NCBI GenBank assembly: GCA_003345555.1
Contig: PRDJ01000068.1
Location: 1 to 32,000, forward strand
Length of the DNA stretch: 32,000 bases
Direction of reading: 5' to 3'
Source of the DNA: Candidatus Thorarchaeota archaeon
GTDB lineage: Archaea; Asgardarchaeota; Thorarchaeia; Thorarchaeales; Thorarchaeaceae
In this document: piece by piece, positions 9,989 to 12,325 of the stretch
How the letters are laid out: each line of letters starts with the position of its first letter
How positions within the stretch are numbered: the first letter of the stretch is position 1
Program-made: the position numbers and the translations under genes
Notes under the pieces: model-generated
Database searches by the model: none
Told to the model about the DNA's origin: nothing
The model's input: the letters and a program-made list of their open reading frames with translations, nothing else

Positions 9989-12325
9989 TTGGATTCACCA
10001 AGAGTTCTATTCGAGATAAAAGACGACCTCAGCACGAGCGCGATCGCAGTAGGAAACCTTGCGGGCTCGGCACAGCCAGAGTTGTGTACTGGTGGACGAG
10101 ACGGAGTGCTCCGCATCTATAGTGCAAGAAGAACCGGGGTTGAATTTCTGGCACAACATGACGTTGAGGGGAGCATCCTATCCATCGAGATTGCGGATGC
10201 AAACAACGATGGCCAAATGGAACTGGTGGTTGGCAGAAGCGTAGGTCCTCGCGATGTTCCCGGACAGGCCGGGACACTGCAAGTCTATCGGCTGACGTCG
10301 GCTAACGCCTTCGAGCTCCTGGCTGAATACCCCGTCGACCGCTTTGTGACCTCAGTCCACGTTACAGACGTAACAGGTGATGAGAAGAACAAGATACTTG
10401 CGGGCGGCAGTGACTCCACACTGAGGGTTCTCGAAATGGATACAGAGAACAACCTGCGTGAGTACGCTCGTTACCAGCTCGAAGACATGCCAATAACAAT
10501 CGGCACCTCTGATGTGGACGGTGACGAAATCGACGAGATTGTCACAGGCAACCGTGACAAAACCCTGCGAGTTTTCAGGGTAAAGGATGGTTCCATCGAG
10601 CAGATGGATGTCTTGGATCTGCCAAGCCCTGTTGTGTCTGTCGCCTCGGGAGACATACTTGGAGACCGAAAGATGGAGCTTGCAGTAGTCACGTACGACG
10701 GATCAATTAGAGTCTATCGTAACGAGGAAAGCAAACTCGAGCTCTTCTCTATGCTCGAAAAAGTCAAGGCTCTTTCAGTGAGAATCGAGGAGATGAATGC
10801 CGACCATTTGGATGAGCTGGTTGTGGCAACATCGGACGCAAGGATTGTCTTCTACAATGTTCAGGCGGCTGAGCTCCATGAGCTGGCAACAGTCAGCATC
10901 GGAACGAAAATCCTTGCGATTAGCGTCGGTGACACTGATGGAAATGGGCGCAAGGAGGTCTTGGTGGGCATCTCGAATGCGCCCCTGAAGGTCGTCGAGG
11001 GGCTGTACACTCTCATACCAAGATTCGAGGTGAGCACGGAGGCACGAGCTGGCAGCCGACTCACTGGCAAGTTTACGATTACGAACGTTACCGATAAGCA
11101 GGTGAGCGGTATCTCCGGGAAGGTCTACTGGTTCCCCAAGAGCGACATGGAGATCACTCCTCAGCAACTTCGCTTTGACTTGGACGCCCATGAGACGAAG
11201 ACGGCGGACTTACAGCTTACACCGAATGTTGAAGGAACGATCATAGTGAGGCCGATTGTCCTGATGTGGACCGACAATGCAGGTCAGGTTAGACAGGTTA
11301 CGACGCCCGAGACCGCAGTACTAGTGCAGAGAGGCAGTGCTATTGCCGCCCCCGTTGCTAGCACACCAATTGCCCTTCCATCAGAGTCTGAATCCCGCGG
11401 GACCGAGGCGGAGGCTGATTCCTTTGGTCCAGTTATCGGGACTGGTTTCGGCGCGGTCCACGCCGCCCAGGCCGAACAATCGTCGGATGAGGCTCCAATC
11501 TCAGCTAGTACAGAGGAAGCCCTCAGAGACGCAGAGAGACTTCTGGACAGGATTTTCGATGAATCACCTCCAGAAGTGGAACTGAGCGCCTTGGTAACTG
11601 AGGCGGTGTCAGAAGAAGAAGAAGCCGAACCAGCACCGGTGGCGCCGACTGTTGTTGCTTCGAACGAGAGTGCAATCGTTGCCGAGATACGCGCCCGTAA
11701 AGCGAAGTCTCCGAAACCTGGCACAACCTCAGATAGCTATAGCTATCTCTTCAAGACAATGGTGACGGGAGAGGGTGCGGTCGGCAAGACCGCTCTTGTA
11801 AACCGATTTACAACAGGGCAGTTTGAGAAGGACTACAAGACCACGATAGGTTCCCAGTTTGCTGTGAAGCTAACATACATCTCGCCGACGGAGTCTGACT
11901 ATGCTGTTGGAATCAAGATTCAGGCGTGGGACGTTGCCGGGCAGGCACGCTTCAAGGCCGTCCGCAAGATGTACTACAGCGGCGCAGCAGGTGTCATACT
12001 TGTCTTCGATGTTACTCGTAGGCGTTCATTCACTGAGCTAATGAAGTGGGTAGAAGAGGCCGATGAGTCAATCGGCGGCCGCGTTCCGATGGTGTGTGTC
12101 GGCAACAAAATTGACTTGCCTGACAGGGCTGTTCCGAGTGAGGAAGCCAAGGAATGGGCGGAATCGCAAGGGTTTGTCTACATGGAAAGCAGTGCGAAGA
12201 CTGGGGAAGGCGTGGCGGATATGTTCAGCGTGCTCGCAGAACTGATGTGGGGAATTGCGCACAAGGGGACCGATTCAAGGAAGACTGGCGACAGCAAGAA
12301 AGGCCCGGATTCCAAGAAGCGCTAG
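9989..12325 (+). CDS. Multidomain protein: FG-GAP-like beta-propeller, Ig-like sandwich, acidic linker, C-terminal Rab-like small GTPase
   Basis: Seven D-x-D/N-G-D-x-x-x-E-hydrophobic-G repeats in aa 1-340. GTPase motifs: G1 GEGAVGKT, G2 TTIG, G3 WDVAGQ, G4 NKID, G5 ESSAK. Confidence 0.9.
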   Translation: MDSPRVLFEIKDDLSTSAIAVGNLAGSAQPELCTGGRDGVLRIYSARRTGVEFLAQHDVEGSILSIEIADANNDGQMELVVGRSVGPRDVPGQAGTLQVYRLTSANAFELLAEYPVDRFVTSVHVTDVTGDEKNKILAGGSDSTLRVLEMDTENNLREYARYQLEDMPITIGTSDVDGDEIDEIVTGNRDKTLRVFRVKDGSIEQMDVLDLPSPVVSVASGDILGDRKMELAVVTYDGSIRVYRNEESKLELFSMLEKVKALSVRIEEMNADHLDELVVATSDARIVFYNVQAAELHELATVSIGTKILAISVGDTDGNGRKEVLVGISNAPLKVVEGLYTLIPRFEVSTEARAGSRLTGKFTITNVTDKQVSGISGKVYWFPKSDMEITPQQLRFDLDAHETKTADLQLTPNVEGTIIVRPIVLMWTDNAGQVRQVTTPETAVLVQRGSAIAAPVASTPIALPSESESRGTEAEADSFGPVIGTGFGAVHAAQAEQSSDEAPISASTEEALRDAERLLDRIFDESPPEVELSALVTEAVSEEEEAEPAPVAPTVVASNESAIVAEIRARKAKSPKPGTTSDSYSYLFKTMVTGEGAVGKTALVNRFTTGQFEKDYKTTIGSQFAVKLTYISPTESDYAVGIKIQAWDVAGQARFKAVRKMYYSGAAGVILVFDVTRRRSFTELMKWVEEADESIGGRVPMVCVGNKIDLPDRAVPSEEAKEWAESQGFVYMESSAKTGEGVADMFSVLAELMWGIAHKGTDSRKTGDSKKGPDSKKR

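Follow-up and report, generated by a model that had tools for sequence, protein, structure and literature searches.

Does a gene that joins a seven-bladed propeller to a small GTPase in an archaeon record an ancient tie between the scaffolds and the switches of eukaryotic trafficking, or is it a product of its own lineage? The question is raised by an open reading frame at positions 9989-12325, plus strand, in a 32,000-nucleotide stretch of DNA (the window) from a Candidatus Thorarchaeota archaeon (assembly GCA_003345555.1, contig PRDJ01000068.1, positions 1 to 32,000). A first-pass annotation made from the sequence alone had described its product as a fusion of a BBS2- or FG-GAP-like beta-propeller, an immunoglobulin (Ig)-like domain and a Rab-like GTPase, and had proposed a Rosetta-stone link between a protocoatomer-style scaffold and a Rab switch. 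The analyses presented here show that the fusion is a real, strongly conserved gene of one archaeal order, the Thorarchaeales. We consider it reasonably probable that its product is a soluble cytoplasmic, Thorarchaeales-specific Rab-like GTPase that carries its own effector or scaffold. Inspection of the sequence showed an uninterrupted frame of 778 residues with a TTG start and a stop codon at 12323-12325. All the motifs that had been quoted for the propeller and the GTPase were recovered in the translation, and the same architecture was present in the structural model and in the orthologues.

In order to establish how widely the architecture occurs, we combined sequence searches with a genome survey. 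A word-indexed search returned more than 120 clusters, most of them labelled Thorarchaeota, with 61-81% identity over 97-99% of the length (about 740-826 residues). A six-frame scan covered 400 genomes of the Asgard phylum, 85 belonging to the family of the window and 314 to other Asgard families. The fusion gene was present in 78 of the 85, and the seven genomes that gave no match were 52-88% complete. The sister family of the same order, represented by a single genome, carried a copy cut by a contig end. This copy was 90% identical to a complete protein of 781 residues (P0123) that shares 41% identity with the query and the same Pfam architecture from propeller to Ras. No full-length match to this query was obtained in the 314 genomes of other Asgard families at E<=1e-15 with full coverage, which does not prove absence; the weak matches found there were propeller-only proteins. 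The source genome (2.28 Mb, 93% complete) holds the fusion in a single copy, and an exhaustive phmmer search found no free-standing propeller-Ig orthologue. Mean column conservation was 0.89 for the GTPase, 0.81 for the propeller, 0.75 for the Ig domain and 0.57 for the linker, indicating strong purifying selection on each of the folded domains and a variable tether.

The start of the frame required separate attention. The called gene model (P0002) has 740 residues and begins at a GTG at 10106, which leaves it 39 N-terminal residues short; these residues are conserved in the orthologues and form the first strands of the propeller. TTG 9989 is the likely start, rather than GTG 10106, because the orthologues, whose N-termini read MxSPKILFEI, are conserved from residue 4 onward. 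The linker of P0002 has five consecutive Glu residues where the window has four (EEEE, residues 542-545, nucleotides 11612-11623); the extra residue is a length polymorphism of the acidic linker. The N-terminus has no hydrophobic stretch, and the 778-residue protein gave neither a signal peptide nor a transmembrane segment (maximum Kyte-Doolittle value over 19 residues, 1.18), which agrees with the cytoplasmic appearance noted at the outset. A sigma-70 promoter scan yielded no match, the model not being applicable to archaea. As for expression, one metatranscriptome library yielded five short contigs, with gaps between them, that are 95-99% identical to stretches of the propeller and of the Ig domain and to the beginning of the GTPase, a weak hint that the gene is transcribed.

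The C-terminal domain could be placed in the Ras superfamily by profile scores and motifs. Pfam Ras matched residues 589-751 with 155.9 bits, above the curated cut-off, NCBIfam small_GTP (TIGR00231) scored 87.6 bits and Pfam Roc, also above its cut-off, 102.5 bits. The G motifs that the earlier reading had called intact are invariant in 38 orthologues (G1 GEGAVGKT, switch-I T618/T619, G3 DVAGQ, G4 NKID and G5 SSAK). Similarly, the five RabF-like strings that it had listed (IGSQF, KIQAW, RFKAV, YYSGA and LVFDVT) align with their counterparts in Rab14 and in the free-standing archaeal protein Thor-Rab, being similar and not identical to the eukaryotic consensus. The top match in the PDB was 7EZB, 'Thorarchaeota Rab', with 156 bits, and the top 60 distinct PDB sequences were all Thor-Rab or Rabs (Rab14, 11, 2, 25, 30, 1, Sec4, Ypt1, 35 and 43). 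The closest free-standing relatives were Thorarchaeota proteins of 182 residues annotated as Rab family GTPases, with 53-59% identity, and the source genome has its own free copy of this kind (L020). In a maximum-likelihood tree of G domains from Asgard sequences, eleven fused domains, including that of the 41%-identity orthologue, formed one clade (98/96 support) and the free 182-residue group formed a separate one (82/94); the branching among the fused clade, the free group and other paralogues was not resolved in this tree. These results indicate that the fused GTPase is a paralogue of the 182-residue Thor-Rab. The one fused clade shows that the fusion arose once, and its membership agrees with an event older than the parting of the two families of the order. 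Confinement of the fusion to one Asgard order favours an invention within this lineage rather than an ancestral Rosetta stone.

The free relative has been studied biochemically. Thor-Rab has segments resembling RabF1-F5 and is devoid of prenylatable C-terminal cysteines; its GTP hydrolysis is comparable to that of Rab11B, and its structure comes closest to that of Rab1B. The paper that describes it makes no mention of a fusion to a propeller (Tran et al. 2024, PMC10933270). The fused domain shares with Thor-Rab (PDB 7EZB/7EZD/7EZE) the G1-G5 motifs, the RabF-like motifs and the missing cysteines: none of the 38 orthologues has a Cys in the last 15 residues, and the tail is poorly conserved. 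Because it has no prenylatable Cys we call the domain Rab-like rather than a true Rab. The two differ in that Thor-Rab is a free-standing protein of 182 residues, whereas the fused G domain is the C-terminus of a much longer chain and falls in its own clade. They differ also in switch I, where Arg37 of Thor-Rab is a putative intrinsic arginine finger (PMC10933270) and the fusion orthologues have an invariant Thr (T618). This replacement suggests that the fused GTPase probably needs a GTPase-activating protein (GAP). The source genome contains 16 Pfam Ras matches (L020-L035), about ten of them strong, and some lie in frames of 423 (contig C36) and 549 residues (contig C77), so that further multidomain small GTPases are probably encoded there.

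The N-terminal half was modelled with AlphaFold2 on 37 orthologues. The model of residues 1-470 (predicted local distance difference test, pLDDT, 88.3; predicted template modelling score 0.85) comprised seven four-stranded blades over residues 6-336, followed by an all-beta sandwich at residues 342-455. All seven blade motifs quoted in the first-pass annotation were located, at residues 20-35, 68-82, 125-139, 173-187, 220-234, 266-280 and 313-327, and the count of seven blades was borne out. The propeller belongs to the FG-GAP or calcium-blade class, with Pfam scores of 74.9 bits for FG-GAP_3 (four stretches) and 37.1 bits for FG-GAP, both above their cut-offs and the strongest of its repeat-level matches. 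The description of its blades as the calcium-binding type fits the class and not every blade. With the metal-site motif Dx[DN]xDG as defined by Rigden et al. (2011, PMC3123361), the complete and invariant ligand set was found in blade 2 only, in which D70, A71, N72, N73, D74, G75 and E78 are invariant in the 38 orthologues. The blade 7 hairpin is canonical in the window protein only, and the other five hairpins are degenerate. Blade 2 may thus bind a metal ion, judging from its conserved ligands.

All seven hairpins of the fusion family carry Glu at motif position 9 (87-100% conserved). The two predicted calcium blades of BBS2, and likewise those of kaptin, also end in Glu (Rigden et al. 2011, PMC3123361), and the hairpins of ITFG2 are of the same Glu type in the alignments made here. 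Six small propellers that match BBS2_Mid were exclusively of the Glu type and had neither hydrophobic N-termini nor a signal peptide. By comparison, 144 generic matches contained 1615 Asp-type versus 287 Glu-type motifs, and the three Asp-type giants that were checked (P0133, P0139 and P0128) have hydrophobic N-termini. The Glu-type signature probably explains the Pfam matches to BBS families that are described below. It defines a cytoplasmic-looking subgroup that also occurs in other Asgard proteins; alone, it is no proof of common descent with the eukaryotic members.

Several other Asgard proteins carry BBS- or FG-GAP-like propellers. On contig C57 of the source genome, a free-standing propeller protein of 343 residues that has no GTPase (L002:1477-2505, minus strand) exceeds the Pfam cut-offs of Beta-prop_BBS7 (39.6 bits) and BBS2_Mid (32.2 bits), as well as that of the second propeller of RSE1/DDB1 (41.6 bits), and it is a distant paralogue of the fusion propeller (E 4.5e-8). 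In another Asgard family, genome G143 encodes a protein of 748 residues with an N-terminal BBS7/FG-GAP-like propeller and no GTPase (L016:583-2826, minus strand). Genomes G140 and G141 hold similar frames. In all of these proteins (748-781 residues) roughly 400 C-terminal residues have no Pfam match, and they represent the same propeller class joined to a different module. An open frame of 644 residues in genome G122 (L018:1242-3173, plus strand; start codon unchecked) scores 169 bits for BBS2_Mid, 102 for Itfg2, 93 for Beta-prop_BBS7 and 75 for PHTB1_N, and its BBS and Itfg2 scores are far above those of the fusion protein. Finally, P0148, a protein of 796 residues from a Promethearchaeota metagenome-assembled genome, has an N-terminal Glu-type BBS7/BBS2_Mid-like propeller and weak matches of the winged helix-turn-helix type (DUF5817_CT, PaaX) at about residue 600, and is another lineage-specific fusion of the Glu-type class.

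The all-beta domain announced at about 11018-11330 was recovered as a sandwich at nucleotides 11012-11353, and when it was modelled alone its pLDDT was 89.4. The first-pass annotation had named BBS GAE, TRAPP and adaptin ear domains for comparison. In Foldseek searches the domain matched TRAP-beta (8.7e-6, TM score 0.73-0.76), complement MG domains, VAP/MSP and CARDB; the GAE domain of BBS9 came 28th. VIA-align gave Z 12.7 for the alpha-2-macroglobulin MG domain and 12.3 for C3, then 11.5 for the BBS1 GAE domain, close to CARDB (10.2) and ASH (10.0). TRAPPII (9.1 and 8.9) and the alpha-adaptin appendage (9.0) ranked below many unrelated Ig folds. Pfam returned nothing significant on the Ig domain alone or on the linker alone (fn3_6 E 0.007, ASH 0.046, DUF2685 0.012). 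The modelled sandwich thus looks generic; a GAE-type identity is compatible with it and is not diagnosed. From residue 456 the pLDDT falls below 50 in the model of residues 1-470, and the acidic linker of about 125 residues is predicted to be mostly disordered or flexible. Column conservation picked out three islands in it, at about residues 476-488, 510-524 and 560-579. In the second, A515, E516, L518, L519 and F523 are invariant and D520, L522 and G524 are at least 90% conserved, a spacing that suggests that the island probably forms an amphipathic helix. An FFAT-like motif in the linker island (IFDE) was considered and rejected, its Asp not being conserved (orthologue consensus LFG).

The first-pass annotation had brought forward a likeness of the N-terminal half to BBSome subunits and to ITFG2. 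A measurable affinity does exist. Pfam BBS2_Mid (53.8 bits), Beta-prop_BBS7 (53.1) and Itfg2 (33.2) all exceeded the cut-off of 27 bits, covering only parts of the models (Itfg2 only profile positions 17-109 of 330), and BBS1 and PHTB1_N remained below their cut-offs. In Foldseek searches, ranks 1-10 in the PDB were BBS2, BBS9, BBS7 and BBS1 (6e-20 to 3.5e-13, 470-610 alignment columns), followed by integrin alpha (6e-13), ITFG2 (8e-13) and COPI. Ranks 1-15 in Swiss-Prot were BBS2, PTHB1, BBS7 and BBS1, aligned from query residue 4 to about 440-455. BBS2 (Z 35.8, 296 residues, 2.1 A) and ITFG2 (Z 34.8, 324 residues, 2.7 A) led the VIA-align comparison. In this propeller-only alignment the WD40 propellers of Ciao1, RACK1 and beta'-COP reached Z 32-34, leaving BBS2 a lead of 2-3 units. 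A profile of the family searched against the PDB found ITFG2 best (E 2.6e-6, residues 5-151, colinear from the N-terminus), BBS7 marginally and integrins not at all.

This affinity proved not to be specific. Among AFDB clusters the first places went to prokaryotic proteins of the FG-GAP, Calx-beta, DUF3794 and VCBS kinds (2.9e-19 to 1e-16), with both domains matched, and BBS entries appeared only at ranks 14-26. FG-GAP+Ig clusters of the ESM Atlas, from bacteria and archaea, matched from residue 1 to about 430-470 with TM scores of 0.66-0.72, versus 0.54-0.57 for BBS; an Asgard cluster labelled BBS2_Mid/BBS7 by Pfam scored 0.65. In the exhaustive phmmer search, scores fell from 375 to about 130 bits beyond the family itself, the next matches being giant multi-repeat FG-GAP proteins. 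The BBS2_Mid, BBS7 and Itfg2 cut-offs are also exceeded by several further propellers of the FG-GAP type, among them two with Asgard labels (Helarchaeales and Promethearchaeota). Judged by the AFDB clusters and the ESM Atlas, the fusion propeller is no nearer to BBS proteins than to propellers of other families. The shared Pfam and PDB matches identify a propeller class and establish no orthologue. The likeness to BBS1/2/7/9 and ITFG2 is that of a broad class, not orthology to a BBSome or KICSTOR subunit, and no ancestry is shown by it. Moreover, no alpha-solenoid or BBS-type helical C-terminal part was detected: residues 1-470 are all-beta, linker and alpha/beta G domain follow, and no Pfam BBS C-terminal domain was found. 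The protein is therefore not of the protocoatomer type. The original proposal holds in part: the fusion with a Rab-like switch stands, and the Rosetta-stone reading is made less likely by the confinement of the gene to one order.

Alternative explanations of the protein differ widely in how well they accommodate these data. That it is an assembly chimera or a decaying gene could be suspected from its unusual architecture and from the truncated gene call, and from nothing else. The frame is uninterrupted over 757-826 residues in more than 70 independent genomes, synteny is kept across the family, the three folded domains are all strongly conserved, and contigs of other wetland metagenomes, an independent study included, hold 57-96% of the sampled words of the gene. 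The homologue clusters, the genome survey and the synteny have refuted this explanation, whose probability is practically nil. An extracellular or surface adhesin, like most prokaryotic FG-GAP/VCBS propeller-Ig proteins, would account for the closest structural clusters, made up of FG-GAP+Ig proteins from bacteria that in many cases carry dockerin, ASH or DUF11 modules, and for the one canonical calcium-blade motif. We hold it to be highly improbable, given a protein that has no signal peptide or transmembrane segment, a fused GTPase that needs cytosolic GTP, and hairpins that are all of the Glu type, mostly without the full ligand set; hydrophobic N-termini are missing as well from the other propellers of the Glu type that were examined, and are present in the Asp-type giants checked. 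Combinations of propeller and GTPase are known in ROCO proteins such as LRRK2, and this precedent, together with the Roc score, could make the protein a ROCO-like or other signalling GTPase whose propeller plays the part of the ROCO WD40 domain. Such an assignment appears very unlikely: the Ras profile outscores Roc (156 versus 102 bits), no COR domain or kinase was found in the Pfam scan (COR none at E up to 1), the leading PDB matches are Rab or Thor-Rab throughout, the closest free relatives are annotated as Rab family, and the domain order is reversed, the G domain being C-terminal. The original choice of a Rab-like GTPase over Roc therefore holds.

The alternative with most to recommend it takes the propeller and the Ig domain as a specific homologue of BBSome or KICSTOR subunits, that is, a pre-duplication relative of BBS1/2/7/9 or of ITFG2/KPTN acting as a coat or tether module, with the fusion recording an ancient functional tie of this scaffold to a small GTPase, in the manner of ARL6-BBS1 or Rag-KICSTOR. 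It draws on the BBS2/9/7/1 entries that fill the top ten PDB and top 15 Swiss-Prot ranks with alignments spanning both domains, on the lead of BBS2 and ITFG2 in VIA-align, on ITFG2 as the best colinear PDB profile match with integrins undetected, on the Z score of the BBS1 GAE domain, and on Glu-type hairpins that match the motifs of BBS2 and kaptin (PMC3123361) and of ITFG2. A 2026 preprint also lists one structural cluster of Asgard and eukaryotic proteins labelled BBS7/ITFG2. Against this, prokaryotic FG-GAP/VCBS+Ig proteins score equally well or better in unbiased libraries, phmmer scores drop outside the family and fall onto FG-GAP giants, the Pfam BBS matches are partial and common to other FG-GAP-type propellers, WD40 propellers trail BBS2 by so little, and the Ig fold is generic. 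In addition, neither a BBS-like helical or coiled-coil C-terminal region nor an alpha-solenoid was detected, the one order to which the fusion is limited is not the nearest to eukaryotes, and its GTPase moiety is Rab-like, neither Arf/Arl-like nor Rag-like. We therefore consider specific homology unlikely. A broader version would make the Asgard Glu-type propellers that have no signal peptide (the fusion, the free 343-residue paralogue of the source genome and the families of about 390-800 residues in other Asgard lineages) the prokaryotic sister group of BBS1/2/7/9, ITFG2 and kaptin, with the fusion keeping an ancient propeller-GTPase partnership. This too is a doubtful proposition; if it were true, the partnership would later have become regulation of the ARL6-BBSome and Rag-KICSTOR type.

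Comparison with known systems makes the position of the protein clearer. BBS2, BBS7, BBS9 and BBS1 of the BBSome (PDB 6VBU, 6VOA and 4V0M) and the fusion alike have a calcium-blade seven-bladed propeller followed by an Ig-like sandwich, which in the BBS subunits is of the GAE type. The fusion has Glu-type hairpins in common with BBS2, and the BBSome subunits, too, act together with a small GTPase. Sequence identity to the BBS subunits is only 12-16%, and their GTPase, ARL6, is separate and Arf-like, whereas that of the fusion is Rab-like and covalently joined. BBS subunits also have platform, helical and coiled-coil C-terminal parts that build the BBSome core, and no counterpart of the helical and coiled-coil parts was detected in the fusion; we know of no cilium in archaea. 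ITFG2 of KICSTOR (PDB 9O5A and 9V6E) is likewise cytoplasmic, has Glu-type hairpins and is the best PDB profile match, but its solved chains align to the fusion propeller only, and no Ig domain or GTPase was seen in the ITFG2 chains matched. The best global structural match over the two N-terminal domains is provided by prokaryotic FG-GAP/VCBS+Ig proteins (AFDB D3FDA8; Atlas FG-GAP+ASH/DUF11/FlgD-Ig clusters), whose hairpins are mainly of the Asp type and which, among those scanned, have no GTPase, in contrast to the Glu-type, GTPase-bearing fusion. The large eukaryotic Rabs Rab44, Rab45/RASEF and CRACR2A have N-terminal EF-hands or coiled coils and a C-terminal, prenylated Rab. They resemble the fusion in layout: an interaction module that may bind Ca stands at the N-terminus and a Rab at the C-terminus, with a long linker or coiled coil in between. 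They differ in having no propeller and in being prenylated; there is no evidence for a common origin.

Under the reading that we favour, that of a cytoplasmic Rab-like GTPase carrying its own effector or scaffold, a GTP/GDP switch of the Thor-Rab type would be permanently tied by the acidic linker to a propeller-Ig interaction platform. Whether the GTPase holds GTP or GDP would determine, in cis or from one molecule to another, which partners the platform binds or assembles with, and the tether would take the place of the lipid anchor and of the separate effector recruitment of eukaryotic Rabs. Both the coupling of switch and platform and the binding of partners are features that we infer. Several points weigh against this reading. 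The nucleotide state has been connected with the platform neither by experiment nor by prediction, and the three conserved islands of the linker have no assigned role. The designation Rab-like is founded on the ranking of similarities, on motifs and on the cited paper, the tree being one of Asgard sequences only. In HeLa cells free Thor-Rab showed no targeting to membranes (PMC10933270), the RNA-library contigs could be DNA carry-over, and no adjacent co-directional partner, GAP or guanine nucleotide exchange factor candidate was found in the orthologous loci. A docking prediction of the propeller and Ig domain (residues 1-460) with GTP and Mg versus residues 556-762 (score 0.12, mark 0.32) speaks neither for nor against the coupling. 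The coordinates of the gene and its parts are collected in Table 1.

Table 1. Positions in the window of the fusion gene and of the parts of its product, with the basis of each assignment.
Feature	Position (nt)	Strand	Basis or remark
Whole gene, propeller-Ig-linker-Rab-like GTPase	9989..12325	+	778 aa
FG-GAP-type ('calcium-blade') seven-bladed beta-propeller, aa 1-337	9989..10999	+	AlphaFold2 model, Pfam, VIA-align
Blade-2 hairpin DANNDGQME, aa 70-78	10196..10222	+	Conservation in 38 orthologues
Ig-like beta-sandwich, aa 342-455	11012..11353	+	AlphaFold2 model, Foldseek, VIA-align
Acidic linker, predicted flexible, aa 456-579	11354..11725	+	pLDDT, column conservation
Linker island, aa 510-524 (EALRDAERLLDRIFD)	11516..11560	+	Conservation in orthologues
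Rab-like small GTPase domain, aa 580-755	11726..12253	+	Pfam, PDB matches, tree
C-terminal tail, aa 756-778, short, basic, Cys-free	12254..12322	+	38 orthologues

Across the family the gene has kept the same surroundings. Upstream of the fusion lies an ABC transporter of the NMT1 type (binding protein, permease and ATPase), and iorB/iorA and a DHH phosphoesterase follow it; in the window these neighbours occupy 6992-9812 and 12322-16024 (also loci L036 and L039). The fusion gene is flanked by the divergent ATPase gene of the transporter and by the convergent iorB/iorA, so that it stands alone as a monocistronic unit. A small GTPase or Arf-like gene was seen some kilobases away in two orthologous loci only. 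The locus of the 41%-identity orthologue (L037) contains genes for POR subunits, ribosomal protein S17e, DHH, an Arf-like protein of 319 residues and an unannotated protein of 772 residues.

The propeller-Ig-Rab-like architecture was not found described in literature searches on Asgard with BBSome, Bardet-Biedl, ITFG2 or FG-GAP and on Thorarchaeota GTPase with propeller. Asgard eukaryotic signature proteins often show lineage-specific multidomain architectures that arise from domain shuffling (Liu et al., bioRxiv 2020.10.19.343400), and the fusion protein is a clear example of such an architecture. As regards the eukaryotic cytoplasmic calcium-blade propellers of the BBSome and KICSTOR, the controls used here indicate that Pfam matches or PDB-only fold matches to BBS proteins are insufficient evidence for a claim of Asgard roots; the family nevertheless offers a concrete and falsifiable handle on such possible roots. 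The many Rab-, Arf- and Rag-like GTPases of Asgard archaea are missing the lipid anchors of eukaryotic Rabs, and the processes that they control are almost wholly obscure. In this setting, a protein that is nearly universal in the Thorarchaeales offers a natural and experimentally tractable GTPase-effector pair in which the partner needs no guess, and the covalent pairing would allow a direct measurement of how an interaction, within or between molecules, depends on the nucleotide.

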